A DNA stretch of 64,000 nt. Origin: Pirellulales bacterium. GTDB taxonomy: Bacteria; Planctomycetota; Planctomycetia; Pirellulales; JALHPA01. The notes beneath the pieces are model-generated. The model did not search any database. It was not told the DNA's origin and was given only the letters and a program-made list of their open reading frames with translations. The stretch is taken from assembly GCA_041736895.1 (NCBI GenBank), contig JBGSSS010000005.1:621-64620 (forward strand). The letters are read 5' to 3'. Both the position numbers and the translations under genes were made by a program. Below, piece by piece: positions 4,357 through 51,802 of this stretch. Position 1 is the first letter of the stretch. Every line of letters begins with the position of its first letter.

Positions 4357-4384
4357 AATTGCGTGTGGGCTAAAGCCCACACTA

Positions 4385-4444
4385 CTAACCCGTCAACTGA
4401 TCCAACGGCCCCGCGGCACGGTGATCCGAGTTGCCGAATTTGAA
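4385..4444 (-). pseudogene. Displaced 3-prime-end remnant of a DUF1552-type gene (19 codons plus stop)
   Basis: The reverse strand reads [19 protein letters not shown], versus [19 protein letters not shown] for the intact gene end at 5001-5060. That is 15 of 19 aa; 43 of 52 hand-aligned nt are identical. Frame and stop are preserved and there is no upstream coding continuation. Confidence 0.75.
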
Positions 4445-6523: not shown

Positions 6524-8845
6524 TTACTCTCCAGCTAATGACAGGGGCAACGCTGCGGTAACGACGATTTCCCGGGCCAGACGCTGAAAATTGTAGCCGT
6601 TTTTCACGTAATCTTGCTGCAGCTTCTCCAATTGATTCGACCCGTAAGCTCGAATCGGCTGCTTGATCTCGTATTGAAACAACTGCTGCGTCAGGGCGGT
6701 CGATACTTCGGGGCTTTCGGCCAGGAATTTGCCCAATTCTCGAGCGCCGCGGAATTTCACCGTCTTGTCGTCGCGGCTGACATAGCTCCCCTCGGCATCG
6801 ACGGGCCGCGCCTTTTCCTCCGCGCGATACTTGCCAATGGCGTCAAAGTTTTCCAGCGAAAAGCCCAATGGGTTGATCATGTTGTGACACAACTGGCACG
6901 CTTCGGCCTTGGTTTGCAAGGTCACGCGCTCGCGGGTATTCAGGCTCGGATGCAGGTCCGGCGCGATCGGCGTAAACGCTTCTTGCGGCGGCTTGATCAC
7001 GCGGCCGAGCATGCTTCGCGCCAAAAACACGCCGCGATGGATCGGTGAGCTCGTCCCGTTGTAGGCGAAGACGCTGAGCATGTAAGGATGCGTCAAGATG
7101 CCGGCGCGCTTGTCGGCGTCGAGCTTCACTTTTTTGAACGGCGAATCCGCCGGCAGGTCCGCGCCGTAAAGTTTCGCGAGCCGCCCGTTCAGGTACAGTT
7201 CCTCGTCCAACAGAAACTTGCGAAAGTCCGGTTCCTTGCTCGTCAGAAAATCTTGCAGCGACAATTCCAACGACGTGCGCAGGTCGTTAATAATTTCCTT
7301 GTTGAACTCGGGAAAAAGTTTCTCGTCCTTCGCCATGTCGATCGGCTGATCGATGCGCAGCCATTGCAGCATAAAGCCTCGCAGCTTGTCGCGAGCGCGC
7401 AGGTCCGTTTGCATGCGCGTCGCTTCGGCGACGAGCTGGTCGCGTGTTTCAAGTTTTTTGTCCGCGGCCGCTTTGAGCAGCTTCGCGTCCGGCATCGAAT
7501 CCCACAGCCCAAACGACAGCCGCGACGCGACGTCATATTGGTCCGGCGTTGCAGAGTTTTCCGAAGGCAAGCCGACTTCGCGATACAGGAAGCGCGGAGA
7601 CTTGAGCGCAAGGATCACGATCCGCTTCACCGCGGTCGTGCGGTCGGGCGAGTCCTTGAAATGCCTATCGACGAAATACGTCTTTTGCTCCGGCGTCAGC
7701 GGGCGGCGGAAGGCGCGTTCGACGAACTTGTAGCAGAAGTCTTTGACCCGCGATTCTTCCTTGCTGTCGATCGCCACATCGCCGCTCAGGGTTCTGAAAC
7801 GATCCACGACGTAGTTCGCGACTTCGAGCGCGCCATCGGTTGTCGCATTGTCCCACGCCTTGGAAATCGTGTTCGCCCGTTCGTAGCCGATGCTCCGATC
7901 GTCCGGCGGGAACGGCGCATTGACGACATACAACTCAGGGTTCTTCGACGTGGTCAGGTAGTACGCCGGGATGATTTCTTGCGTGCGCTTCGGCATCACC
8001 CAGAGGAGCTTGATCGACGACTTGCCGAGTTTGTTGACGTCCTTGTTCAGGTTCGGATCGCCAACGCCCCCTTTGCCCTTGATGTATTCGAGCCGGATCG
8101 GATAGACGCGGCCGCCGAGCAACGTGATCGACGCGCGGTACTCGGTGTCGTTGCCCGACTTGACGCCTTGATCAATCAGCGGCGGCGGGCCGTTGAAGAA
8201 CGATTGATTGACCCAGAGCCGGACGGAGTGTTCGGTCTGGACGACGAATTCGTACTCGCCCGTCTCGGGGGCGAAGACGGAACCTTCCCAACTGATCCCA
8301 AACTCTGGGCCTTCGATTTTTTCGTCGGGAGTCTTATTCTCAAAAGTAAAATCGACCGTCGCATCGACCCGCTCGATGACGCGATTCCGTCTGTCAATCC
8401 GGCGGCCTTTGTAGTAGTCGCCCTTGAGTCCAAGCTCCTGAAACCCGCTGCCTGGCTGGCGGAAGCTGGCGAGCAAATCCGTCACCGTGTTCTGGTACTG
8501 CTTCACCGTGAGCCGCGAGAGATCGATCCGCGCGGGCTTGTTCCGCGCTTGCGCGACGGGCGAGTAGAACGCTTCGTGAATGTACTTCGCCACGAGCGCC
8601 GAATCGGCGGCGTTGAGCTTCTCCGGCTCGCCCTCGGGCATCTGCCGGTCGATGTAGTGGCTGAGTTGCCCGAGCGAGCGATCGCCGATCAACGGTTCGG
8701 GGTAGTCTTTGCTCCCCTGCCCTTTGTCGCCATGACAGCTCGCGCACATTTCGCGATAGATGGCCGCGCCATCGCGTTCCGCGGCGCGCAGGAGCGACGG
8801 GATGAGGAGCAAGAGCGAGAGCAGCAGGCGACACAGCAATGTCAT
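6524..8845 (-). CDS. DUF1587/DUF1592/DUF1595/DUF1588/DUF1585-family protein with an N-terminal haem-c motif and a PA14-like insert
   Basis: ORF 6524..8914 trimmed to the signal peptide MTLLCRLLLSLLLLIPS. Evidence is CASCHGDKGQG, a PA14-like stretch (GISWEGSVFAPETGEYEFVVQTEHSVRLWVN), and the C-terminal LTHPYMLS...SPIHRGVF and CHNMINPLGFSLENFDAIGKYR. Confidence 0.85.
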   Translation of the reverse strand: MTLLCRLLLSLLLLIPSLLRAAERDGAAIYREMCASCHGDKGQGSKDYPEPLIGDRSLGQLSHYIDRQMPEGEPEKLNAADSALVAKYIHEAFYSPVAQARNKPARIDLSRLTVKQYQNTVTDLLASFRQPGSGFQELGLKGDYYKGRRIDRRNRVIERVDATVDFTFENKTPDEKIEGPEFGISWEGSVFAPETGEYEFVVQTEHSVRLWVNQSFFNGPPPLIDQGVKSGNDTEYRASITLLGGRVYPIRLEYIKGKGGVGDPNLNKDVNKLGKSSIKLLWVMPKRTQEIIPAYYLTTSKNPELYVVNAPFPPDDRSIGYERANTISKAWDNATTDGALEVANYVVDRFRTLSGDVAIDSKEESRVKDFCYKFVERAFRRPLTPEQKTYFVDRHFKDSPDRTTAVKRIVILALKSPRFLYREVGLPSENSATPDQYDVASRLSFGLWDSMPDAKLLKAAADKKLETRDQLVAEATRMQTDLRARDKLRGFMLQWLRIDQPIDMAKDEKLFPEFNKEIINDLRTSLELSLQDFLTSKEPDFRKFLLDEELYLNGRLAKLYGADLPADSPFKKVKLDADKRAGILTHPYMLSVFAYNGTSSPIHRGVFLARSMLGRVIKPPQEAFTPIAPDLHPSLNTRERVTLQTKAEACQLCHNMINPLGFSLENFDAIGKYRAEEKARPVDAEGSYVSRDDKTVKFRGARELGKFLAESPEVSTALTQQLFQYEIKQPIRAYGSNQLEKLQQDYVKNGYNFQRLAREIVVTAALPLSLAGE

Positions 8846-11046: not shown

Positions 11047-11090
11047 CTCCTACGGATGGGCATACCATCCGCAGGCTTGGGTTGGCGCTG
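11047..11090 (+). repeat. 44-nt interspersed repeat, copy 1
   Basis: CTCCTACGGATGGGCATACCATCCGCAGGCTTGGGTTGGCGCTG. 42 of 44 nt are identical to the reverse complement of 35967-36010. It contains the hairpin CGGATGG...CCATCCG. Confidence 0.9.
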
Positions 11091-17078: not shown

Positions 17079-17192
17079 GTAGGTCCCGGTCTCCGACCGG
17101 GACCTGGCTCGGCGTTTTACGCCGCGCGTGGACGACGCTGGAATCGTTGCTTACTCCCCGCACAAGGTCCCGCGGAGGACCGCGGGACCTAC
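17079..17192. repeat. Hairpin-pair inverted-repeat element (114 nt)
   Basis: GT + AGGTCCCGGTC-tcc-GACCGGGACCT ... AGGTCCCGCGG-agga-CCGCGGGACCT + AC. Each arm is a perfect 11-bp stem and the outer GTAGG/CCTAC close the element. Confidence 0.85.
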
Positions 17193-17625: not shown

Positions 17626-18336
17626 TTAGCTTTTCAATTCACGCCCGCCGCTGCCATCGGGGGCTTTATGGCTGGCCAGTACAGGAGGCGCGGGATGCGA
17701 GTGGTGTTCTTTGATCATGCCGAGCGGCAGGAACTGGCCCGACGTCACGTCGTAGGCGTAAATCTCGCCCGTCTCGATTTCGTAGTGCCAGGCATGCAAC
17801 TTCAACGAGCCGCGCATCAGCCCGACCGCGACGGCCGGATGAGTTTGCAGGTTTTCGATCTGCGAGAGGACGTTTTCTTCGATGGTGGCGCTGAGGAGTT
17901 CGTCGCCAGACAGGTGGTGGTACTTGGCCCGCACGATTTGCCGAGTCGTTTCGGCGAGTTGCAGCCACTTGGCAGTATCGGGAAGTTCGGCGAGCATCTC
18001 GGGTTTGAGCAAGCCTTTCATCGCCCCGCATTGGGAATGGCCGCAGATGATGATGTCCTTGACGTCGAGCGCGCGGATGGCGAACTCGACCGCCGCCGTT
18101 TCGCCGCCATTGCTCGCGCCGTACGCGGGAACCATGTTGCCCGCATTGCGGAGAACAAACAGATCGCCTGGCGCGGTCTGCGTGATCAGATTCGGATCGA
18201 TGCGCGAATCGCTGCAAGTGATGAACATCGTGTTCGGCGATTGGCCGGAGCCGAGCCGCTCGAAGAGGTCGCGCTGTTCTTTGAAAACTTGCGAGCGAAA
18301 ATGATGGACCCCGGCGACGAGTTGTTGGACGGGCAT
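17626..18336 (-). CDS. Beta-class carbonic anhydrase
   Basis: ORF 17626..18483 trimmed to MPVQQLVAGVHHF, because the upstream part is translated repeat. CSDSRIDPN...VLRNAGN...CGHSQCGAM zinc-ligand motifs are present. Confidence 0.9.
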   Translation of the reverse strand: MPVQQLVAGVHHFRSQVFKEQRDLFERLGSGQSPNTMFITCSDSRIDPNLITQTAPGDLFVLRNAGNMVPAYGASNGGETAAVEFAIRALDVKDIIICGHSQCGAMKGLLKPEMLAELPDTAKWLQLAETTRQIVRAKYHHLSGDELLSATIEENVLSQIENLQTHPAVAVGLMRGSLKLHAWHYEIETGEIYAYDVTSGQFLPLGMIKEHHSHPAPPVLASHKAPDGSGGRELKS

Positions 18337-18449
18337 GGGGCAGGGAGTCAGGATTGCAGGAGACAGGAGGACAGGATGTGCTCCTGATAATATCCGGAAT
18401 TTTCGCGTGCGAATACGCGATCTTTCAAAACCGTTTAGCGGCGCAATTC

Positions 18450-18578
18450 GTAGGCCCGGCTGTGCCGGGCACAGCGAAGACATCGCCGGAAAATGGAATC
18501 TTGCATGCCAAGCAGCTTGGTTCGCAAAGCGTTTTGGTGTTGGAGAATCAACACTCGGTGCGGCACAGCCGCACCTAC
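18450..18578 (+). repeat. 129-nt structured interspersed element, copy A
   Basis: GTAGGCCCGGCTGTGCCGGGC ... CCAAGCAGCTTGG ... GTGCGGCACAGCCGCACCTAC. It lies 10 nt downstream of the TPR gene stop. Confidence 0.9.
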
Positions 18579-18588
18579 GTCAGAGAAA

Positions 18589-19191
18589 TTACACCAGCAT
18601 CGCGGTGAGTTGCCGGAAGCCCGGATCGTTGCGGATGGGGTCGAAATCGTGTTCTTTATGGACCAGCTCTTTGTAATCGGGGTCCAATTCGAACGCGATG
18701 GCCAGATGGCTCAGCGCCGCTTCTAGCCCGTGGGCCAGGCTCCAGTAACAAGCGAGATTGTAATGCACAATGGCCGTGCCGGGCTTTGCGGCGATCGCTT
18801 CTTGCAACGATTCGATGGCCATGTCCAGCCGGCCGCAGCGCTTGTAGCACCAACCGAGCGCGAGCCAGATGTGCAGATTTTCAGGTTCCAAATCCGCGGC
18901 TGCCCGCAGTGGAACGACGGCGTCAGCAAAGCGATCGAGCGCGCGGAGCGCTTGTCCGCGAAGATGTTGCGCGATGGCCCCGGCGCGGGTTCCTTCGGAC
19001 AAGATGTCCAGAGAATGCAACGCCCGCTGGGCGATGCGATGGCGATTTTCGACGCTGGCCGCGAGCGCATCGTCAAACAGCATGAGCAATTCGAGGTAAC
19101 CCTCGATTTCGCTCAAAATCCGCTGTCGGCGAATACGTTCGAGACTTTGCATCGTGGTTGTGCCTGCTCCGATTCTTCCGTGAGAATTCAC
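18589..19191 (-). CDS. Tetratricopeptide-repeat protein
   Basis: TPR-like A/L/Y periodicity (e.g. ALGWCYKRCGRLDMAIESLQEAIAAKPG, VHYNLACYWSLAHGLEAAL). Confidence 0.7.
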   Translation of the reverse strand: MNSHGRIGAGTTTMQSLERIRRQRILSEIEGYLELLMLFDDALAASVENRHRIAQRALHSLDILSEGTRAGAIAQHLRGQALRALDRFADAVVPLRAAADLEPENLHIWLALGWCYKRCGRLDMAIESLQEAIAAKPGTAIVHYNLACYWSLAHGLEAALSHLAIAFELDPDYKELVHKEHDFDPIRNDPGFRQLTAMLV

Positions 19192-20374: not shown

Positions 20375-20829
20375 GATGCGTTCTATGTCTTGGGGAAGTT
20401 TCCCATGCCGGGGAAGACCGTGATTGCCGTAACCCATACGGCGGCGCGGTCAGGGCCGAGGTAGCCCGTCGCCATGCCAAAACTTAGGCCGTGATTCTCG
20501 GAGCGGCAAATTTCGGGAGGCGGAAAAATCAGGAAAATCTTGCCCCCCAATTGGCGCTAACAACTCCCTCATACTTTCAGTTTGACGCCATTTCTCCCCA
20601 GGTGTTGCAGAACCACCTCAAGAGTCGCAAATGAGGCAATTTCGCAACACCTTCCTAATCCCGGCTCGCACCGCGCAAAACACTGCACTGCAAGAACTTA
20701 AAGCCGGGCAATAGTCCCGATCAAACACTGGCCCTGGCTTTGCCTTGGACCTTCTGGCAAGCAACTCGGAGTCGTTCCCGGCGATTCGCCTCCTCCGTCG
20801 TTGTTTCCCGACAATCAAGGCAAAACCGA

Positions 20830-21180
20830 ATGGGCTTGGAATTCCTCTCGAAGTCGGTCTTTTGGATCTGGTATTCGCTTCAACCAGCGCCAACTCCCTT
20901 GCCGGAAGCTCCGGTTGTGCCGACCAAGCATATTTTGCAAGCGACCTGGATTGAACCGGTCTCGCTGCGAGACGAAACGAGCCTGCCGACATTGCGGCAG
21001 CCCGCCGAAACACGAAAGACATCGCGTATGCCGTCGAAAATGACGGGAATTCGAGAACAACAGCCGCGAAAGCCTCTTTGGAAAGCCGCAAAAACCTGGG
21101 AATTGCCGCCAATTCTCTGGGCTGGCTTCGAAGGATTTCTAGCTGCTGGCTTGGGGATTATTAGCCTAATAAAGCCGTAG
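20830..21180 (+). CDS. Possible small hypothetical protein with a C-terminal hydrophobic segment (weak call)
   Basis: Internal ATG of ORF 20740..21180. Codon choices (tcg, ccg, gaa, ttg) resemble real genes here. The stop TAG is the GTAGG terminus of repeat copy C, which would stop any ORF entering in this frame. No recognisable domain. Confidence 0.25.
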   Translation: MGLEFLSKSVFWIWYSLQPAPTPLPEAPVVPTKHILQATWIEPVSLRDETSLPTLRQPAETRKTSRMPSKMTGIREQQPRKPLWKAAKTWELPPILWAGFEGFLAAGLGIISLIKP

Positions 21181-21304
21181 GTGCGGCTGTGTCGCACAAA
21201 GGATTGAGCCTCCAGTTCAAATACGCTTTGCTTACCAAGCCGGCTGGCATGCGAGATCGAATTCTTGGCTATGTCTTGTGTTTGCCCGGCACAGCCGGGC
21301 CTAC
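21177..21304 (-). repeat. 129-nt structured interspersed element, copy C (inverted orientation, 128 nt)
   Basis: Its reverse complement begins GTAGGCCCGGCTGTGCCGGGC and ends GTGCGACACAGCCGCACCTAC. Confidence 0.9.
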
Positions 21305-21398
21305 GAAAATTCTCTAGAAAATTTGTACGGATTCGCGTGCCTGCTGGCACTATTACTCCTGGCGGCACCATTTCTGTGTTTCTGTCGGGAGATATGCG

Positions 21399-23762
21399 AT
21401 GCGACTGACGTTGCGGACATTGTTGGCTCATATGGACGATGTCTTGGAGCCGAATGATCGGGCCGAGGTAGGCCAAAAGATCGAAGAAAGCGAATTCGCC
21501 AAAACGCTGCTGCAGCGCATCCGCGATGTCACGAGCCGCACACGCTTGGGGACGCCGAAAGTGCTCGGCAAAGGTTTGGCCGCCGACTCGAATACGGTGG
21601 CCGAGTATCTCGATCACATCATGCACAATGAAAAGGTGCAGGAGTTCGAGAAGGTTTGCCTTGAATCCGATATCCATCTAGCCGAAGTCGCTTCCTGTCA
21701 CCAAGTTTTGGCCTTGGTGCTTGGTCACCCTGCTGATATTGATCCGGCGATGCGGCGGCGGATGTACGATGTGATCAACCGTCCCGATGAGCCGCTCGAA
21801 CCGGAACATCCGCCAGTTGCCGCTGCCGCGGCGAACGGCGCTGCGCCACATGTCCCGCCGGCCAATCCTTTGCCAGTTGCGGCTTCTCCAGCAACCCCCG
21901 TTCGCGCAAGTTCCCCGGATCCCATGGAACGCGAACGAACGGTTCCTGATTACCTCAAGTCTGAATCCAAAAAGTCCCCGCTGCTTTGGGCCATCGCTGC
22001 GGGAATCCTTTTGCTCCTCGGACTCGGTATCGCTCGTATTATCGGTCCGTTCGACAATAATCATCCGATCGCTGGCCTCTTTGGCGCGAAGCCTGATCCG
22101 ACGCCGGTAGCCAACAACACGACCACTGCTCCGGCGAACAACACTCCCGCCAAGACTACTACACCAGAGAATCCAACGAACAAACCTGCCGTCGACCCAG
22201 CCAACAATCAGGCTGCGTTAACTCCGGCAGTGGCGAACCCGGCAGTGACGACTCCCGCGACAGATTCCCCAGTGCCAACAACGCCGGCGAATCCCAATGC
22301 AGTTGTCGCAACACCAAATCCCGTCGTCTCCCCTGTCCCAGGGTCGAACCCTACAGTGAATCCTGCGCCAGTTCCTGCGACAAACCCCGCGGTAGCGCTC
22401 AACCAACCGAACAACACGATTGGCGTGGAAGGGGCAGCGCCCGCAGTTCCCGCGGGCAATCCGGCCAACGTTGTCGCACCAACGGTGACTCCGGCGACGA
22501 CCGGACCTGATGCCGTCACTCCGGTGCCTCCACAGCCAATGCCCGCGGCTGATCCGGGGAATGTGCCAGCCGCGCCCGTCGTACCGGGAATTGCCGGACG
22601 GATGACACAAGACGGGACGCAAGTCCTGCTGAGTTGGCGCACGCCGCCGGGGGGCGAAGGAGCCTGGGTCCGCGTCAATGCCAACGAGACGATCGCGGAG
22701 GGTGAACGGCTGCTCGGGCTGCATACATATCGGCCAGCGCTGCTGCTCAAGAACGGGTTGAGTCTGCAACTGATCGGCGAGACACAACTCGAAGTCTATT
22801 CCACCCCGAACGAAGATATCCCGCTCATCCGTCTCCATTTTGGAAGGATCGTTGTCGCCAGCAGCGGCAAAGCCAACACCAAGCTTGCCATCGAGCCAGG
22901 CGTCAAGCAATCCGGGCTCCTAACTCTCAACGATCCCGATTCGCTCATCGCGATCGAAGTCCAGCGAAGCCTGCCGGTTGGCTCGAACCCGGAAGCCGTT
23001 CAATCCCAAGTCAGCGCCAATCTCTACATCGCGGCGGGCCGCGCGCAGTGGCAGCCCGATGCGGCGGTCGCCGCCGGCGAGCCGTTGGCGGGGCCGCTCT
23101 TGGTCAAACTGCTCGCGCGGCCAGATAGCTTGCAACCGCCAGAGACCAAACTGCCAACCTGGATCATCAAGAACGAACTTTCGGGCTTCGATAGCCAGGC
23201 TTCGGGCCCCTTCTCGCAATTACTGATGAGCAGACAATCCGTCGGCTTGGCATTGAGAGAATTTGCCAATACGGATCGCCGCGCGGAAATCAAGTATCTG
23301 GCCGCGCGGAGTTTGGCCTTGATCGACGATTTTGATTTTTTCATCGATAGCTTCACTGACGTCGATCAAAAGGGCGTTTGGAAAAAGGAAATCGAAACGC
23401 TCCAGCAAGCGCTCGCTCGCGGGCCAGACACCGCGAAACTGGTGCGCGAAGCATTCGTCAAACAGCGCCCAGCCTATGGCGAAAAACTCTATCGCTATCT
23501 GTGGGGCGCGACCGTCGCGGACCTGGCGACCGGACTCGGCGACGATCTTATCGCATCGCTGGATAGTGATAATCTCGAGTTGCGCGTCCTGGCGTATCAC
23601 TGCCTGCGCACCGCGTCCGCCGATGCCGAGGGCAAAAGCCCGACGCATAATTTTGTAGCAGAGTCCAGCAACGCGGTCGCGCGGCAACAAGCCGTGCAGC
23701 GTTGGAAGCAGCATGTGCGAGATCTCGTGCGCAAAGTTCCGGCGGCTCCGGTGGAACCATAA
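21399..23762 (+). CDS. Large membrane-anchored protein: conserved planctomycete N-domain, TM helix, ~170-aa P/T/A/N/V-rich linker, C-terminal globular region
   Basis: N-terminus MRLTLRTLLAHMDDVLEPNDRAEVGQKIEESEFAKTLLQRIRDV (anti-sigma-like family common in planctomycetes). TM helix LLWAIAAGILLLLGLGIARII. Low-complexity linker at aa 231-397. Confidence 0.8.
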   Translation: MRLTLRTLLAHMDDVLEPNDRAEVGQKIEESEFAKTLLQRIRDVTSRTRLGTPKVLGKGLAADSNTVAEYLDHIMHNEKVQEFEKVCLESDIHLAEVASCHQVLALVLGHPADIDPAMRRRMYDVINRPDEPLEPEHPPVAAAAANGAAPHVPPANPLPVAASPATPVRASSPDPMERERTVPDYLKSESKKSPLLWAIAAGILLLLGLGIARIIGPFDNNHPIAGLFGAKPDPTPVANNTTTAPANNTPAKTTTPENPTNKPAVDPANNQAALTPAVANPAVTTPATDSPVPTTPANPNAVVATPNPVVSPVPGSNPTVNPAPVPATNPAVALNQPNNTIGVEGAAPAVPAGNPANVVAPTVTPATTGPDAVTPVPPQPMPAADPGNVPAAPVVPGIAGRMTQDGTQVLLSWRTPPGGEGAWVRVNANETIAEGERLLGLHTYRPALLLKNGLSLQLIGETQLEVYSTPNEDIPLIRLHFGRIVVASSGKANTKLAIEPGVKQSGLLTLNDPDSLIAIEVQRSLPVGSNPEAVQSQVSANLYIAAGRAQWQPDAAVAAGEPLAGPLLVKLLARPDSLQPPETKLPTWIIKNELSGFDSQASGPFSQLLMSRQSVGLALREFANTDRRAEIKYLAARSLALIDDFDFFIDSFTDVDQKGVWKKEIETLQQALARGPDTAKLVREAFVKQRPAYGEKLYRYLWGATVADLATGLGDDLIASLDSDNLELRVLAYHCLRTASADAEGKSPTHNFVAESSNAVARQQAVQRWKQHVRDLVRKVPAAPVEP

Positions 23763-35966: not shown

Positions 35967-36010
35967 CAGCGCCAACCCAAGCTTGCGGATGGCATGCCCA
36001 TCCGTAGGAG
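35967..36010 (-). repeat. 44-nt interspersed repeat, copy 2 (inverted)
   Basis: The reverse complement CTCCTACGGATGGGCATGCCATCCGCAAGCTTGGGTTGGCGCTG matches 11047-11090 at 42 of 44 positions. Confidence 0.9.
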
Positions 36011-36694: not shown

Positions 36695-37102
36695 ATGTCC
36701 ACCAACCCCTACGAAGTCACGCCGCGTATTTGGAACGAGTGGCATGAGCTGCTCAAGGAGAAGCTGCGCTGCGAAGCGACCAAAGCATTGGCGCTCGAGA
36801 TCGGCCGGCTGGGGATCATCCTCGGCGGCTGCATGATCTTTGCCGCGCTCATGGCCTTGATCGACCCGAACGATGACGTGCAAAACGCCCTCGGGCGTTT
36901 GGCATGGGCCGTGGGGTTCATCGTTGTCGGACTCGCGATCTCGTATCCGTTGTACAAGCCGGTGCGCACGCGGTTGAATGAGATCGAGCTGATTCTTCCC
37001 ACGGCGAAAGAGCTTGAGCCGGAGGATGTCGCGGATGACGAAGAAGCGGAATTAGATAATGCTTATGCTGAAGATCATCCAGGAATTCGTAACGAAGAGT
37101 AG
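36695..37102 (+). CDS. Hypothetical two-TM membrane protein with acidic tail
   Basis: LGIILGGCMIFAALMALI and LAWAVGFIVVGLAISYPLY helices. Hairpin repeat and terminator lie downstream. Confidence 0.6.
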   Translation: MSTNPYEVTPRIWNEWHELLKEKLRCEATKALALEIGRLGIILGGCMIFAALMALIDPNDDVQNALGRLAWAVGFIVVGLAISYPLYKPVRTRLNEIELILPTAKELEPEDVADDEEAELDNAYAEDHPGIRNEE

Positions 37103-37113
37103 CTGTAAATGAT

Positions 37114-37145
37114 CAAAGCCAAGGGGATTACCTCCTTGGAGCATT
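37114..37145 (+). repeat. 30-nt hairpin repeat, copy 3
   Basis: CAAAGCCAAGGGGATTACCTCCTTGGAGCATT. Confidence 0.85.
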
Positions 37146-37159
37146 CCTGCAATAAAGAT

Positions 37160-37188
37160 CCAAGGGGAAAATCCCCTTGGCTTTTTTT
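37160..37188. terminator. Rho-independent terminator shared by convergent genes
   Basis: CCAAGGGG-aaaat-CCCCTTGG-C-TTTTTTT. It lies 3 nt from the stop of the minus-strand response-regulator gene. Confidence 0.8.
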
Positions 37189-37190
37189 AT

Positions 37191-38543
37191 TTACGCCGAT
37201 TTTTCTAGTTGCTGCGCTTGATCCGCATTCAGCTTGTTGTAAAGCGTCTTGAGACTGATCCCGAGTTCTTCGGCCGCCTTCGGCTTGCTGCCGCCGTTGC
37301 GCTCGACCGCGTTGTGGATCGCTTGCAGTTCGATTTCTTGCAGCGATTGCCCGCCGGCCATCTTCAACGTCTGCCGCGCCGGCGCGGCTTGAAAACGCTC
37401 GGGCAGATGCTCGACATCGATCGGCAGTTTATCGCACAAGATCGAAGCGTGCTCAATGACATTGGCCAGCTCACGCACATTCCCCGGCCAGGCATAATGT
37501 GTCAGCAGATCCAAGGCGACGGGCGTAAATAGCTCGCCGGCCTTTGTCGCACCACTCAGAAAATGCTTCGCCAGGTGCGCGGCCAATTGCGGCACATCCG
37601 CGGCCCGCTGCCGCAGGCTCGGCAGTTGCAGCTCAAACGTATTAATCCGGAACAGCAAGTCCTCGCGAAAGTCGCCGCTTGCGACCATCTGATCCAAATG
37701 GCGATGGGTCGCGCTGACGACGCGCACATCAACCTTGATGCTCGAGTTGTCGCCGACGCGGCGAATCTCGCGTGATTCGAGCACGCGCAGGAGCTTGGCC
37801 TGCATCGCTTTGGGCAGTTCGCCGATTTCGTCGAGGAACAGCGTCCCGCCATCGGCGACTTCGAACAACCCGATGCGATGCTCGTCGGCCCCGGTGAAGC
37901 TTCCCTTCTTGTGACCAAAGAGTTCACTCTCGATCAGGTTTTCCGGCAGCGCGCCGCAATTGATCGCGACGAATGGCGCATCGCGCCGTGCGCTTTGTTC
38001 ATGCAACGAACGCGCCACGAGTTCCTTGCCCGTGCCCGTTTCACCGAGGATCAGCACCGTGCTGTTGGCGGGCGCGACCTTGGCGATCATTAGCCGAACG
38101 CGTTCCATCGCGGACGAATCGCCAATCAATTTCGTTGGTCCGGCGACGCGTTCGAGTTGGCGCTGCACGGCGCGGTACTTGTTTTGCAATTCGCGCTGCG
38201 CGGCGACGCGCTGCAGCAGCGATTCCAAATCGGCCAGTTTGCACGGCTTGGTCAAATAATCGTACGCCCCGTGACGCAGCGCGGCGATCGCGCTTTCGAC
38301 CGTGGATTTGCCCGTGAGGATCACCGCCGACGTGTCGGGGTTTAGTTCCTTGGCCCGCGCGATGACTTCAATCCCGCTTAGACCCGGCATGTCGAGATCG
38401 ACGAGCAGGCAATCAAAGACATTCCGTTCGAGCGCGGCGACAGCAGTCAACCCGTCGGGACACACGGTGACTTCGTGACCAAGGCGCGCGAGTTCGATGC
38501 GCATCAGCTCTTGGAGCGAGCGTTCGTCGTCGGCGAACAGCAA
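37191..38543 (-). CDS. Sigma-54-dependent response regulator (REC + AAA+ + Fis-type HTH; NtrC family)
   Basis: ORF 37191..38777 would overlap the kinase by more than 200 nt, so I propose TTG 38543 ([10 protein letters not shown]). Evidence is GETGTGKE Walker A, the [15 protein letters not shown] loop, and the C-terminal [16 protein letters not shown]. Confidence 0.9.
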
Positions 38544-47349: not shown

Positions 47350-48174
47350 ATGACGAAATCCACACCGCTGCAATCAAACTGGTACGACCTGCCGAAGTTT
47401 TACGATCTGAGTGTGGCCGATGAGACGGCCGGGGAGTTGGCGTTTGTGCAAGGGGCCGCTGCCAAGTTTCTGGATCAACAGCCCGCCGATCGACCGATAC
47501 GCGTGGTCGAACCGGCGTGCGGAACGGGACGTTTGACCGAAGCACTTGCAAGGCGTGGGTTTCAAGTCACGGCGTTCGATTTGAATCCGACGATGGTCGA
47601 ATTTACGAAGCAACGAATTGCTAAGCAGCAAGCCCGTGGGTCGCGTGCGGCGATTACAACACCCACCGTTTTTGCGGCCGACATGGCGCGCTTCACGATT
47701 CCGCAGCCGGCGGACATCGGCGTTTGCTTGCTCGACAGTTTTCGCCACTTGCTCAGCGAGGACGATGCGCAAGCGCATTTGCAGTGCATGGCCCGCGCGG
47801 TGCGGCCGGGTGGCATCTATCTGCTAGGGCTGCATCTCCTGCCGCCGGATGCCGATTTGGAATGCACTGAGCGCTGGACAAATCAATCCGGCAAGACGCA
47901 CATCACGACAACGCTGCGGGTGATGAGCAGTTCCCGAAAGACGCGTTTAGAGCAGATCCGCATTAGTCTCTTGGTCCGCGATGGAAAGCGCGTCGCGCGC
48001 TACCGCGATGAATTCCCGCTCCGTATGTACACCGCGGCGCAGCTCAAATCGCTCGTGGCAAGCGTGCCGGAATGGAGTCTCACGGCGGTGTACGATTACT
48101 GGTACGAGCTAGAGGAACCGCTGAAATTGACCAACGAGTTGTCGGACACGGTGCTGGTGTTGCGAAGAACGTAG
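47350..48174 (+). CDS. Class I SAM-dependent methyltransferase
   Basis: VVEPACGTGRLTEALARRGFQVTAFDLNPTMV (motif I). The stop TAG lies inside repeat copy B. Confidence 0.8.
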   Translation: MTKSTPLQSNWYDLPKFYDLSVADETAGELAFVQGAAAKFLDQQPADRPIRVVEPACGTGRLTEALARRGFQVTAFDLNPTMVEFTKQRIAKQQARGSRAAITTPTVFAADMARFTIPQPADIGVCLLDSFRHLLSEDDAQAHLQCMARAVRPGGIYLLGLHLLPPDADLECTERWTNQSGKTHITTTLRVMSSSRKTRLEQIRISLLVRDGKRVARYRDEFPLRMYTAAQLKSLVASVPEWSLTAVYDYWYELEEPLKLTNELSDTVLVLRRT

Positions 48175-48299
48175 GCCCGGCTGTGCCGGGCGAACGCAAG
48201 ACGCTGCCAATAGCTTCAATCCCGCAGACCAAGCGGCTTGGTCCGCAGAGAGCCTTTGACTTAGAATGTCTGCTCTTTGTGCGGCAGAGCCGCACCTAC
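48171..48299 (+). repeat. 129-nt structured interspersed element, copy B
   Basis: It fills the whole gap between convergent genes. Its GTAGG and CCTAC termini contain both stop codons (48172-48174 on plus, 48299-48301 on minus). Confidence 0.9.
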
Positions 48300-49564
48300 T
48301 AGCGCCGAAACTTGACTTGCGAGCCTTCGCTCAGGATATCATGAATGTCTTCGGCGTCCTTGGCGGACAAGCGAACGCTGCCGCGCGGGTCGCTCGGCGG
48401 AACTTGCGCGCCGTGGCCGTGGATCATCATCTTGTCGCTCAATAGAAGTGCGAAATTGCCGATCGGATTGTTCGGGTCGCCGCTGCCGAAACTTTGATTT
48501 AGCTGGCTGTTGTTGTACGTCGGATTCATCGCGCGTTTTTGCACGACATAATCCGCCGGGGTGTATTGAGACTCGCTTCCGAGCATCACGATGTCAAACG
48601 TGCCGGCGAATTGATCTTTCAAGAAGAGCGTCAGCTTGTTCTTTTTGAGATCGACGTCGGCGCGGAACGGGCCGGGAACCACCTTGAGGAACTGGCCCAC
48701 GGGCAATTGCTTGGGATCGGTCAAGCCATTGATCTTGGCCAGCATCTCCCACGGCACGTTGTACCGCTTGGCAATGACATCCAGCGTCTCGCCGGGGTCG
48801 ATGCGATGCGGGCTGACGAGGTGATACTTGGTCGAGTAGATGACCACGCCGGCGAGCTGGTTGAGCAAGTCGTTGACCTGTTGCTGCTCGCTCGCGCTCA
48901 TCGACTGATCGTCGTAAATCCGAGTGAGGCGAGTCAGGGCTTCGCTGAGTTTATTCTCGGCGATCAGTTGCTGAGTTTCCTTCATCACTGGACCAAACGG
49001 CGAGAGCGCAGCTTGGTTCACGTCGCTGCCCGTTGTCGTAAAGCCAGCCAACGGCGTGGCCCCGGCGGGTAAGTTCGTCGCGGCTGGCGTTGCATTCGCC
49101 GGCGCGTTCAAACCCGACATTGCTGGCGGAGCTAGATCGCCTGGCTTAGGCAGCCCGGCCAACGGCGGCAGCAGCGCGCTGCCGGGATTATCGCCCGCTG
49201 GCGGCGCATCGAGTTTCAAATCATTGCCGCTCGCTGCCGGCTTCAATGGTTCGCCAAATCCAATTGTAGCCGGTGGCGTCGTTGCCGAAGGCCCGGAAGA
49301 CGATCCCATCGACAACGGACTATTCACGATATTGTCCCGCCGCGGTTCGCGCGGCGAAAGCGTCGTCGGCGCAGGACTCGCCGGCGTCGCCGCAAAATTC
49401 GGCACCGTGCTCTTCGTATCGAGCGCAGGTACCGCGATCGCCGGGATCGACGCATCGACCCCGAGCGGAACCTGTTGCGGGTTCTTGAGGTGCAAGGTCC
49501 GATAGACGCCGTAACCGACGCCGACCAACACCAAGAGCATGAAAAACGACTTGAGCGAATTCAC
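48299..49564 (-). CDS. LysM-domain protein with a YkuD-like (L,D-transpeptidase fold) C-terminus in which Ser replaces the usual Cys
   Basis: ORF 48299..49723 trimmed to GTG 49564, which is preceded by AAGGAGG 6 nt upstream. TM helix FFMLLVLVGVGYGV. LysM segment YNVPWEMLAKINGLTDPKQLPVGQFLKV. The C-terminus reads MMIHGHG...PRGSVRLS where YkuD domains have H-G...G-C-[IV]-R. Confidence 0.75.
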   Translation of the reverse strand: MNSLKSFFMLLVLVGVGYGVYRTLHLKNPQQVPLGVDASIPAIAVPALDTKSTVPNFAATPASPAPTTLSPREPRRDNIVNSPLSMGSSSGPSATTPPATIGFGEPLKPAASGNDLKLDAPPAGDNPGSALLPPLAGLPKPGDLAPPAMSGLNAPANATPAATNLPAGATPLAGFTTTGSDVNQAALSPFGPVMKETQQLIAENKLSEALTRLTRIYDDQSMSASEQQQVNDLLNQLAGVVIYSTKYHLVSPHRIDPGETLDVIAKRYNVPWEMLAKINGLTDPKQLPVGQFLKVVPGPFRADVDLKKNKLTLFLKDQFAGTFDIVMLGSESQYTPADYVVQKRAMNPTYNNSQLNQSFGSGDPNNPIGNFALLLSDKMMIHGHGAQVPPSDPRGSVRLSAKDAEDIHDILSEGSQVKFRR

Positions 49565-49729
49565 GACGATCCTCCTTGATCGCGTGGAGTTCCGAAAATC
49601 AAAACCGCGTTGGCCCTGAAAGATGCTGCTGCCATCATGGCGCAACGCTCCCTCGTGGCAAACGTCGCGGAATAGTAGCGAGCGAAGGATTTTCGAGAAA
49701 GAGCAATTCAGCACTCCTTTCACAACGCC

Positions 49730-49758
49730 CGTTTAGCGGCGACTCGAAGAGGAGCGTT
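49730..49758 (-). repeat. Exact 29-mer repeat, copy 3 (inverted)
   Basis: CGTTTAGCGGCGACTCGAAGAGGAGCGTT. Confidence 0.95.
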
Positions 49759-50466: not shown

Positions 50467-51186
50467 ATGGAATCGTCGCTGCATCGCGAATTGAAACGCA
50501 TCTATGCCGGCGAGGCCGCGCGCACCGAAGTTCGCCTCGGCCGCTACATCATCGACGCGATCATCTGCGACGAACATGGCTGCGACATCCTCATCGAGGT
50601 TCAGCACGGCCCGCTGACGGCGATTCGGGATAAGATCAAGGTCTTGCTCGAAAAACACCCGCTCCGCGTTGTCAAACCGCTGATCGCCAAGAAGCATCTT
50701 TACAAACGGGCACGCAAGAACGGCAAGAAGCTCGAAAAACGCGTCAGCCCCAAGCGGATGACACTGCTGCATATCTTCGAAGAGCTCGTCCACATGACGC
50801 GAATCTTTCCGCATCCGAACCTGACGCTCGAAGTGCCGCTCGTCGAGATCGCCGAATATCGCCGGCCGGGTCACGGCAAACGCCGCTGGCGGCGCGATGG
50901 CGATCATGTGGTCGAGGATCAGAAACTAGTTGAGATTCACGACACCTGCGATTTGCGCACACTGGCCGATCTCCGCGGGCTGATTGAGACGGAGGACCGC
51001 TGCCTGCCCGCGGAGTTTACGACCCGGGAATTGGCCGAGCAATGCAACGTTTCTCGTTCGTTAGCGCAGCAGATCGCGTATGTGTTGCGACAGTGCGGCG
51101 CGACGGTCGTGTTGGGCAAACAGAAGCGCGCGTGGCTCTATGCGTGGGCACCGGCGAGTGAAGCGAAGCAGCGGCTGGCGTCGTAG
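50467..51186 (+). CDS. Putative PD-(D/E)XK-like nuclease-fold protein with a C-terminal winged-helix-like region (CoiA-like motif pattern)
   Basis: SLHRELKRIY...EVRLGRYIIDAIICDEHGCDILIEVQHGPL fits the H-x3-K ... D ... E-[VI]-Q pattern of CoiA-type nuclease domains. The C-terminus TTRELAEQCNVSRSLAQQIAYVLRQCG looks HTH-like. This is a by-eye inference only. Confidence 0.5.
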   Translation: MESSLHRELKRIYAGEAARTEVRLGRYIIDAIICDEHGCDILIEVQHGPLTAIRDKIKVLLEKHPLRVVKPLIAKKHLYKRARKNGKKLEKRVSPKRMTLLHIFEELVHMTRIFPHPNLTLEVPLVEIAEYRRPGHGKRRWRRDGDHVVEDQKLVEIHDTCDLRTLADLRGLIETEDRCLPAEFTTRELAEQCNVSRSLAQQIAYVLRQCGATVVLGKQKRAWLYAWAPASEAKQRLAS

Positions 51187-51454
51187 AGTAGCCAACTCGC
51201 CGCGGCGAGTTGGAAACAATCGACGTTCCATCTCAGAACTCGATGATGCTTCCAAGCGGCATCCAAAGTGGCCTTCTCACGCCGTGAGAAGGATTCGCCC
51301 GAGTCCGATTCTGGGCAGACGATTCCTGTCGTAGCGGCGTTATTTTCTGCTCGCGGGGCGAGCAGGCCAATTTGAATGCCGCCGTGCTGAATCGGAGCAT
51401 GTTGGAATAGAATGTCCAACGGATTCCAACTTGCAGAGCAAGTTGGCTACTCTA
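51184..51454. repeat. 271-nt hairpin-pair inverted-repeat element filling a convergent intergenic gap
   Basis: TAGAGTAGCCAACTCGCCGCGGCGAGTTGG ... CCAACTTGCAGAGCAAGTTGGCTACTCTA. The terminal TAG/CTA triplets are the stop codons of 50467..51186 (+) and 51452..51802 (-). It also has internal hairpins (CCTTCTCACG/CGTGAGAAGG, CTGCTCGC/GCGAGCAG). Confidence 0.9.
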
Positions 51455-51802
51455 AAACTCGATCACGCGTACGCCCGGCACGCTTTCTTGCACAAAAATC
51501 TTGCCATCGCCCATCCGGCCCGTGCGGGCGACATCGACCATTTGCCGCATGACACTCTCAACGTGCTCGGCGGCGATCCAGACGTGGATCTCGACCTTGG
51601 GCAGAAACGCCATCGAGAAGTCCGACTCGCTGTACTGGTCGAGGTAACTCTTCTGCCGGCCGAAGCCCTTCACCTCGACGACCGAGACAGCTTCGAGTGG
51701 CGCACGTTTAATCGCGTCGAGCACCTTCTCCGCCAGATACGGCTTGACGATCGCCGTGACTTGCTTGATGCCGTGTGTCGTGTTGCCCGTTGGGGAGTTC
51801 AT
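51452..51802 (-). CDS. P-II family signal-transduction protein
   Basis: KQVTAIVKPYLAEKVLDAIKRAPLEAVSVVEVKGFGRQKSY...GDGKIFVQ follows the P-II fold pattern. Confidence 0.85.
   Translation of the reverse strand: MNSPTGNTTHGIKQVTAIVKPYLAEKVLDAIKRAPLEAVSVVEVKGFGRQKSYLDQYSESDFSMAFLPKVEIHVWIAAEHVESVMRQMVDVARTGRMGDGKIFVQESVPGVRVIEF

Follow-up and report, generated by a model that had tools for sequence, protein, structure and literature searches.

Di Nocera, De Gregorio and Rocco (2013) described GTAG-tagged REP sequences in more than 80 species, Planctomycetes included (PMC3733652). In Rhodopirellula baltica these authors distinguished the families GTAG-20 and GTAG-21, together with many tyrosine transposase genes that have repeats at their flanks; several GTAG REP families can coexist in one genome, and the genes for REP-associated tyrosine transposases (RAYTs) are flanked by repeats (PMC3733652). 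GTAG REPs form inverted homodimers or heterodimers around spacers of 20-100 bp, some of them conserved, others variable or structured. Their usual sites are the intervals between convergent ORFs or between ORFs on the same strand, in most cases at under 20 bp from a 3' end; their termini often provide a TAG stop, and they create spurious short ORFs (PMC3733652). A canonical REP carries GTAG or GTGG 0-2 nt 5' of a hairpin; the loop of this hairpin has 2-5 nt, its basal stem is fully paired over 7 nt or more, and at least three of the first four basal stem bases are G or C (PMC6006769).

Three other systems are close enough to be compared. In Pseudomonas fluorescens SBW25, Bertels and Rainey characterized REPINs, which are REP doublets mobilised by a RAYT (PMC3116915, PMC3337134). 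In E. coli, TnpA-REP cleaves REPs and joins them again after recognition of GTAG and the hairpin, and the REPs themselves have effects on the stability of mRNA, on the termination of transcription and on translation (PMC6006769; PMC12306157). Elements of the IS200/IS605 group (e.g. IS608) and their miniature derivatives, which likely share the mechanism proposed below, have subterminal hairpins at distinct left and right ends, and a Y1 HUH transposase recognises these hairpins when the DNA is single-stranded.

Here we describe a repeat that occurs three times in the window, that is, in the whole 64-kb stretch of DNA from a Pirellulales bacterium that was analysed, where the chance expectation is zero (copies A, B and C; Table 1). 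The three copies and their positions had been predicted from the letters alone; aligned from end to end they show a mean column identity of 81%, and an nhmmer search with a profile of the element recovered exactly these three in the window and no fourth one. The left 21-mer, GTAGGCCCGGCTGTGCCGGGC, matches three times, always without mismatch, and the right 21-mer, GTGCGGCACAGCCGCACCTAC, matches three times with 0, 1 and 1 mismatches, the expectation in shuffled sequence being 0 for both, so the 5' end is identical and the 3' end nearly identical among the copies, as the original prediction had it. The inverted-repeat match between left and right ends is also the one that had been counted, 17 of 21 positions. 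No target-site duplication accompanies any of the three copies (flanks aattc/gtcag, agaac/tagcg and ttttc/ggctt), again in accord with the earlier reading.

Table 1. Copies of the element, their REP ends and the neighbouring genes in the 64-kb window.
Feature	Position	Strand	Remarks
Copy A	18450..18578	+	129-nt REP heterodimer; spacer of 87 nt with palindrome CCAAGCAGCTTGG
Left REP of copy A	18450-18470	+	GTAGG-CCCGGC-TGT-GCCGGG-C
Right REP of copy A	18558-18578	read on minus	GTAGG-TGCGGC-TGT-GCCGCA-C
Copy B	48171..48299	+	129-nt REP heterodimer
REPs of copy B	48171-48191 and 48279-48299		
Copy C	21177..21304	-	128-nt REP heterodimer, reverse orientation
CCCGGC-type REP of copy C	21284-21304		
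TGCGGC-type REP of copy C	21177-21197		one stem mismatch
beta-Carbonic anhydrase gene	17626..18336	-	start approximate (~18336); copy A 114 nt upstream
TPR-repeat gene	18589..19191	-	own TAA at 18589-18591
Conserved 116-aa gene, unknown function (MGLEFLS...GIISLIKP)	20830..21180	+	ATG at 20830; stop is the copy C TAG, 21178-21180
787-aa gene downstream of copy C	21399..23762	+	begins 94 nt beyond copy C
Class I SAM-dependent methyltransferase gene	47350..48174	+	third base of last codon and stop lie within GTAGG of copy B
LysM / L,D-transpeptidase-like (LysM/YkuD) gene	48299..49723	-	stop 48299-48301 overlaps copy B by its last base

Each end of the repeat folds as a small hairpin, GTAG-GCCCGGC-TGT-GCCGGGC on the left and, read on the other strand, GTAG-GTGCGGC-TGT-GCCGCAC on the right. 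In all six ends GTAG is followed, with 0 nt between, by a G+C-rich stem of 7 bp and a loop of 3 nt, one end (the TGCGGC-type REP of copy C) having a single mismatch in the stem. The loop is TGT (CTC or TGT in the right end) and the basal stem bases are GCCC or GTGC, so that the ends in the window have the canonical make-up of a GTAG REP hairpin (PMC6006769; PMC3733652). They are also repeated, interspersed and extragenic, with three doublets (6 REPs) per 64 kb, all of them intergenic. Copies A, B and C have the REPIN layout of two inverted REPs around a short spacer, GTAGG being outermost; each copy is a GTAG-REP heterodimer, REPIN-like, with its tags at the outer borders. The palindrome-plus-unpaired-tag anatomy, the dimers, the placement at gene 3' ends and the use of TAG as a stop are those of the GTAG-REP families (PMC3733652), although, judging by the REP-encoded peptides in the supplement of PMC3733652, the sequence family of the window stems (CCCGGC and TGCGGC, with the TGT loop) is not that of GTAG-20 and GTAG-21 of R. 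baltica. The E. coli BIMEs, or REP Y-Z2 (PMC6006769), resemble the window elements in being inverted heterodimers of related yet distinct REP subtypes with a 5' GTAG guide at the foot of the hairpin; the E. coli stems, however, are longer and bulged, whereas those of the window are minimal, with 7 bp and a 3-nt loop.

The interior is far less uniform than the ends. The spacers of the three copies measure 86-87 nt and are 57-68% identical to each other, against about 0.46 at shuffle level. Near-identical copies were not found within the window, and at a spacer identity of only 57-68% there are therefore no recent copies among A, B and C. The palindrome CCAAGC-N-GCTTGG in the centre, which had been thought to be kept in every copy, is a perfect one in copies A and B, but in copy C it is imperfect (CCAGCCGGCTTGG). 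With the REPINs of SBW25 the window elements share the two inverted REPs with a spacer between them and, under RNA folding parameters, the capacity to form a hairpin, and SBW25 REPINs persist and are vertically inherited; in contrast to the window spacers, however, SBW25 REPINs occur as large near-identical populations that replicate as a unit.

The way in which the two ends differ indicates which structure is preserved. The four positions that depart from the inverted-repeat match form two compensatory pairs inside each hairpin (CC..GG versus TG..CA), by which the small hairpin of each end is kept perfect while the pairing of 21 bp between the ends is weakened; the outer 21-bp stem of the heterodimer thus contains 4 mismatches. 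Minimum-energy folding with RNA parameters joined the whole element into a single long hairpin (z-scores of -3.2 to -5.7, both strands considered), whereas with DNA parameters the REP at each end folded into a hairpin of its own. Eight variants of the stem, all of the form GTAGG-N6-TGT-N6'-C, retain pairing in 56 of 56 cells, and 5 of the 7 pairs change on both sides, a count that is partly circular since some of the variants come from a search that required complementarity. Among REP matches defined by pattern, complementary stem combinations dominate.

We consider it very probable that the copies are non-autonomous REP/RAYT elements, in which two inverted GTAG-tagged REP hairpins surround a passenger spacer of 86-87 nt. 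The reading is based on the GTAG-hairpin anatomy, the covariation, the occurrence of the same template around RAYT genes, the position at gene 3' ends and the lack of target-site duplication, this last property being expected of single-strand HUH/Y1 transposition and speaking against a classical MITE. By analogy with E. coli TnpA-REP and IS200/IS605, an HUH/Y1-type RAYT, with its gene at some other place in the genome, would recognise each small hairpin and its 5' GTAG on single-stranded DNA, and would then cleave and rejoin the strand, thereby moving or copying the doublet without target-site duplication. The two different stems may act as distinct left and right ends, and copies would survive only where they are harmless, that is, directly 3' of genes. 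Small deletions could then bring the TAG-containing tag against the reading frame, where it would become the stop codon. If E. coli REPs are a guide, the hairpins in 3' untranslated regions probably affect the stability of mRNA 3' ends or the termination of translation, and they may slow ribosomes at the stop. The likeness to IS200/IS605 extends to the absence of target-site duplication and of classical terminal inverted repeats; the IS elements, however, encode the transposase themselves and go in on the 3' side of a tetra- or pentanucleotide that is fixed, while the window elements would depend on a transposase in trans and no fixed target was found for them. In the 10 nt flanking 165 REPs a fixed insertion target was not found; the profile of these flanks shows no more than a slight bias towards C or T at position -1 and towards a purine directly behind the hairpin.

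The REP template of the window is widespread in the phylum. A scan of a genome collection (one genome per species, 596 Gb) with GTAGGYSCGGCTGTGCCGSRC returned at least 110 loci; among the matches listed, nearly all were in Planctomycetota MAGs, mostly as inverted doublets with GTAGG outward, and the groups represented were Tepidisphaeraceae, Phycisphaeraceae, Gemmataceae/Fimbriiglobus, Planctomycetaceae and Pirellulales. Other phyla contributed, among the matches listed, a few single matches, which is about chance level for 596 Gb. The dominant form among the matches listed was GTAGGTCCGGCTGTGCCGGAC-N(0-36)-GTCCGGCACAGCCGGACCTAC, whose spacer varies in sequence and length even within one genome. 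The exact pair of the window, CCCGGC with TGCGGC, was found elsewhere in L059 (a Pirellulales MAG, with a 31-nt spacer), L119, L130, L131, L139 and twice in L135. A comparison of elements with this REP pair covered 8 elements from at least 5 genomes; in related genomes their spacers, of 31-101 nt, are unrelated, unlike those of SBW25 REPINs. When metagenomes were scanned for the left REP, 16 loci were obtained, for the most part singletons or doublets of other types, the same end pair occurring only in L119.

The connection with a transposase comes from sister variants of the template. In a Planctomycetia MAG (OTE_78, locus L039), an ORF of 185 aa between two doublets matches the NCBIfam model NF047646, 'REP-associated tyrosine transposase', with 186 bits and an E-value of 2.5e-55 (cut-off 80), and also matches Pfam Y1_Tnp; its own stop is the TAG of a GTAGG. 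Homologs of this RAYT number 4,806 at E <= 1e-20 in a large protein collection, the named ones including Stieleria, Crateriforma, Pirellulales and Planctomycetaceae. Two of the homologs, about 60% identical, in a Pirellulales MAG (L132) and in Stieleria sp. (L133), are both flanked by clusters of REPs of the same template, GTAGG plus a 7-bp stem and a TGT loop, with the lineage-specific stems GTGCTC, GCATGC, GCACGC and TCATGC. A tblastn search with a planctomycete RAYT as query found no RAYT in the 64-kb window or in the fetched stretches of close relatives, and none is present in the 16 loci of the metagenome scan. In the loci examined, no RAYT was flanked by exactly the CCCGGC or TGCGGC stems, and the link to the transposase therefore rests on sister variants in other genomes.

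All three copies lie within 0-10 nt of the 3' end of a gene. Copy B fills the interval between two convergent genes, and copies A and C lie between genes on the same strand, 10 and 0 nt past the upstream stop, respectively. The best named relatives of the carbonic anhydrase and the methyltransferase of the window are from Pirellulales, which makes a Pirellulales-like planctomycete the most likely source of the window. It had been proposed that the GTAGG/CCTAC termini supply stop codons to the flanking genes, and this is correct for the methyltransferase, whose stop (48172-48174) is the TAG of GTAGG in copy B, and for the 116-aa gene that ends in copy C. For the LysM gene it applies by one base only, since just the last base of its stop is shared with CCTAC, inside which a second in-frame TAG is present. 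Copy A donates no stop in the window, where the TPR gene has its own TAA 10 nt away. The 20 methyltransferase homologs that were compared all end in ...VLVLRR-x, give or take a few residues, and copy B therefore neither truncates nor extends the protein. Copy C does terminate ORF 20740..21180, as predicted, the real gene in it being that of 116 aa; this ORF was first taken as spurious on account of its flat GC3, a view that was overturned by the conservation of the 116-aa product in two related genomes (79% and 61% identity). Near copy A, the start of the mechanical carbonic anhydrase ORF, at 18483, falls inside the element, and the true start is at about 18336 because the homologs have 231-238 aa. 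In a wider frame test with 187 perfect-stem REPs from all the DNA fetched, the frame of the tag TAG had 80 or more open codons upstream of it for 67 REPs, compared with 44 and 27 for the control frames, an enrichment that is real but moderate.

Orthologous sites in related genomes make the relation between element and stop more evident. At site B the element is present in L130, where both stops lie in the tags (AAG-TAG-G and, opposite, the CTA of CCTAC), and in L131, where the tag holds the methyltransferase stop; in L139 the remnant GTAGGCCCGGCT is all that is left and still supplies the stop. The same site is without element in L129 and L137, with the stops TAA and TGA at the same codon, and in L138, where gene order is kept, the methyltransferase ends with TGA about one codon later and an unrelated spacer of 171 nt follows. 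This intergenic region of L138 was considered as a decayed copy of the element, but a convincing similarity is absent. At site A, L135 contains the element with the junction GGTG-TAG-G, compared with GGTG-TAA-TTTCTCTGAC-GTAGG in the window; the difference is of 14 nt with GTA at both borders, and in L135 it is GTAGG that supplies the stop of the TPR gene. L134 is without element at site A, where the stop of the TPR gene is TAA, and at site C, where the small gene has TAA at the same codon. Hence occupied orthologous sites use the TAG of GTAGG as stop, and sites without element have mostly TAA or TGA at the same codon (about one codon later in L138); both occupied and unoccupied sites are thus seen between genomes, as events that are undated. 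The simplest reading of the tag as stop would be that small deletions move the tag up to the reading frame and halt there since the tag offers a stop; insertion targeted to stop-adjacent positions could also have produced the pattern.

The loci L131 and L135 belong to one genome (sample ERZ26052449), which we compared with the window. Four-fold degenerate sites of four genes are 0.60-0.66 identical between the two, and for the REP ends, taken over the three orthologous sites, 99 of 105 positions agree (94%). The spacers at sites A and C have identities of 0.48 and 0.51, against about 0.46 after shuffling, and differ in length (87 versus 101 nt), whereas the copy B spacer is identical to that of L131 in 52 of 58 positions (90%), with four-fold sites at 60%. 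This conservation of the copy B spacer, far above that of synonymous sites, is not predicted by the pure neutrality of a selfish element. Persistence at orthologous sites was considered as simple vertical inheritance of old copies, which is too simple because the spacers of A and C are unrelated between the genomes. The constancy of the ends around a changing passenger suggests, at the level of sequence comparison, that elements may have been replaced at occupied sites or inserted repeatedly at the same site, with constraint or homogenisation acting on the ends. The pattern of constant ends is compatible with the view of REP/RAYT systems as long-lived and vertically inherited.

A more far-reaching version of this idea, which we regard as unlikely, is that the pair of REP ends would be a module kept in place at the 3' ends of genes, with a spacer that would be repeatedly exchanged, either by RAYT-mediated replacement where an element is already present or by insertion targeted to the stop context, and that purifying selection would act on some spacers, as that of copy B, in their capacity as functional RNA or as binding sites for proteins. 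If it were true, REP/RAYT would be a host-integrated system that edits 3' ends and supplies stops, and not a selfish element.

We find it quite improbable that the repeat is a host-encoded structured RNA module, that is, a bidirectional terminator, a stabiliser of mRNA 3' ends or an insulator selected for its fold, whose repetition would be due to function and not to mobility. Such a module would account for the strong RNA folding on both strands into a long hairpin, with the z-scores given above, for the compensatory changes that RNAalifold detected in 7 of 36 pairs among 5 sequences, for the presence of every copy in a 3' untranslated region and for the conserved spacer of copy B, where 90% identity to L131 stands against 60% at four-fold sites; besides, E. 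coli REPs stabilise mRNA and terminate transcription (PMC6006769). However, no run of T/U follows the hairpin on either strand, a promoter/terminator consensus scan does not report the elements, and no Rfam family matched at the gathering threshold in the whole window; in a permissive E-value search of Rfam with two copies, the sole match was a chance one to a nematode snoRNA, with 17.9 bits against a gathering score of 50. Also the interior is not conserved at two of the three orthologous sites, the spacers at A and C being at shuffle level and of different lengths, and the mismatches of the heterodimer are at the expense of the long hairpin, both short ones being preserved. On these grounds the structured RNA, bidirectional terminator or insulator of the original prediction finds no backing in the window. 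An RNA module and an origin as REP/RAYT element are not mutually exclusive.

The original prediction also offered a MITE/REP-like element, which was correct and is now sharpened to a GTAG-REP doublet. As a classical MITE the repeat would be an internally deleted derivative of an IS with a DDE transposase, recognised through the 21-nt terminal inverted repeats, and its short length (128-129 nt), interspersed occurrence and imperfect terminal inverted repeats (17/21) would be in keeping with this. We hold it to be very doubtful, as target-site duplication is absent at all three copies and each 'terminal repeat' forms a GTAG-tagged hairpin of its own, the distinguishing mark of a REP. The four differences between the ends are compensatory within the hairpins, a pattern that is sensible only if the hairpins are what is recognised. 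In related genomes, moreover, ends of the same template flank genes of Y1/HUH RAYTs and not of DDE transposases, and elements that share their ends have completely different spacers.

That the repeat might be a conserved protein-coding segment (VGPAVPG...RHSRTY) of a family of small genes has next to no probability: the predicted inflated ORFs (18354..18608, 48072..48302 and 20880..21677) do exist and run through all the copies, and similar peptides recur in ORFs of other genomes, but their GC3 of 0.53-0.59 is without the third-position G+C excess of confirmed genes (0.64-0.72), conservation is at the DNA ends on both strands and not in one frame, the genes on either side of the elements are well supported and have homologs that stop right at the element border, and spurious ORFs derived from REPs are a documented annotation artefact (PMC3733652), so that membership in a conserved protein-coding family, which had been named as an outcome that would speak against the element, is effectively refuted.

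The preferred reading, non-autonomous REP/RAYT elements, places the repeat within what is already described: stop-codon use, 3'-end position and spurious ORFs are all documented properties of the known GTAG REP class, and this is not a new kind of element. For annotation, it explains the three inflated, spurious ORFs and the false upstream start of the carbonic anhydrase, and it accounts for the two genes whose stop is a TAG belonging to a repeat. To our knowledge, REP/RAYT systems have hardly been studied in the planctomycete phylum. What our analysis contributes is a clearly delimited REP template (GTAGG, 7-bp stem, TGT loop), whose stems covary, which has cognate RAYTs and which spans Phycisphaerae and Planctomycetia. 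If the combination of swapped spacers with REP ends conserved well above synonymous sites were genome-wide, it could bear on how REP doublets form and are maintained.

Finally, the window contains two more GTAG-bounded pairs of palindromes with stems of other families, at 17079-17192 and 51188-51450, which had not been mentioned in the original prediction.

The three REP heterodimers are not the only GTAG-tagged palindromes of the window. A fourth element bounded by GTAGG and CCTAC folds strongly (DNA z-score -6.0); its left end reads GTAGG-TCCCGG-tctccga-CCGGGA-CC and its right end GG-TCCCGCGG-agga-CCGCGGGA-CCTAC, and it probably belongs to a second family of REP heterodimers within this genome. 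ORFs 50467..51186 (+) and 51452..51802 (-) converge on another pair of palindromes, GTAG-CCAACTCGC-cgcg-GCGAGTTGG ... CCAACTTGC-agagc-AAGTTGG-CTAC, which extends exactly over the interval separating them; the pair is a third GTAG-REP family or else two singletons. Also, the 44-nt inverted pair contains the hairpin CCTAC-GGATGG-gcata-CCATCC-GCAGG, with tag-like CCTAC/GTAGG at its foot, that may be another REP-like unit.

GTAGG also supplies stop codons at loci of other genomes. At a related-genome locus orthologous to a window site (L129), the IU_nuc_hydro and ADH genes converge on a TCAGGC-type doublet that takes up exactly the space between them, and at the Stieleria RAYT locus (L133) the TAG of a GTAGG ends the PGI gene and likewise the RAYT gene. 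The cluster of metagenome contig L120, where three direct CCCGGC-type REPs at 34-nt spacing are followed by one inverted REP, is a BIME-like array.

Features identified in the window and in other loci
Feature	Location	Description
Fourth GTAGG...CCTAC-bounded element	window 17079-17192	114 nt; stem family other than that of the three copies
GTAG-tagged palindrome pair	window 51188-51450	263 nt apart
Lone GTAG hairpin	window 4363-4385 (-)	
44-nt inverted pair	window 11047-11090 and 35967-36010	95% complementary
Further stop codons supplied by GTAGG	L129 7463-7532; L131 (orthologous to a window site) 7323-7344; L133 1876-1897 and 2562-2583	
Tandem REP cluster	L120 11-145	metagenome contig
~32-nt interspersed repeat family	window 29653, 30566, 37114/37154, 46564, 50408	CAAAGCC(A/C)AGGGG..T.ACC.CCT(T/G)GG
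30-nt repeat	window 23774, 40463, 44667, 49730 (reverse complement)	AAACGCTCCTCTTCGAGTCGCCGCTAAACG; four places
27-nt repeat family	window 4286, 4330, 30634, 46085, 51888, 51849 (reverse complement)	CTCCCTTGCTTACGCTGCGGGCTGCTA; five direct, one inverted

REP sequences are usually described as species-specific, and for this reason the breadth of one 21-mer, GTAGGTCCGGCTGTGCCGGAC, is unusual. Among the matches listed (loci L001-L110, e.g. L005, L008, L015 and L073), it is identical in two classes, Phycisphaerae (Tepidisphaeraceae and Phycisphaeraceae) and Planctomycetia (Gemmataceae and Planctomycetaceae). In these same listed matches, the spacers of its doublets, of 0-36 nt, are unlike at every site, within single genomes too.

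Conservation at the DNA level with the orthologous loci L134 and L135 is strong over long non-coding stretches, 20465-20830 and 18337-18449; these may have a regulatory role or be leader sequences. The second stretch lies upstream of the carbonic anhydrase gene (conserved example, TTCCGGATATTATCAGGAGCACATCCTGTCCTCCTGT); a further conserved example, GGGGGGCAAGATTTTCCTGATTTTTCCG...GGCCTAAGTTTTGGCATGGCGACGG, lies near 20470-20560.

The window carries other interspersed repeats as well. Every ~32-nt CAAAGCC-type repeat includes a short palindrome, the GTAG tag being absent, and these repeats form one inverted pair at 37094-37205. Regarding the 30-nt repeat, two copies are identical and one inverted copy has 100% identity; the copy at 49730 sits directly upstream of the LysM gene's start.
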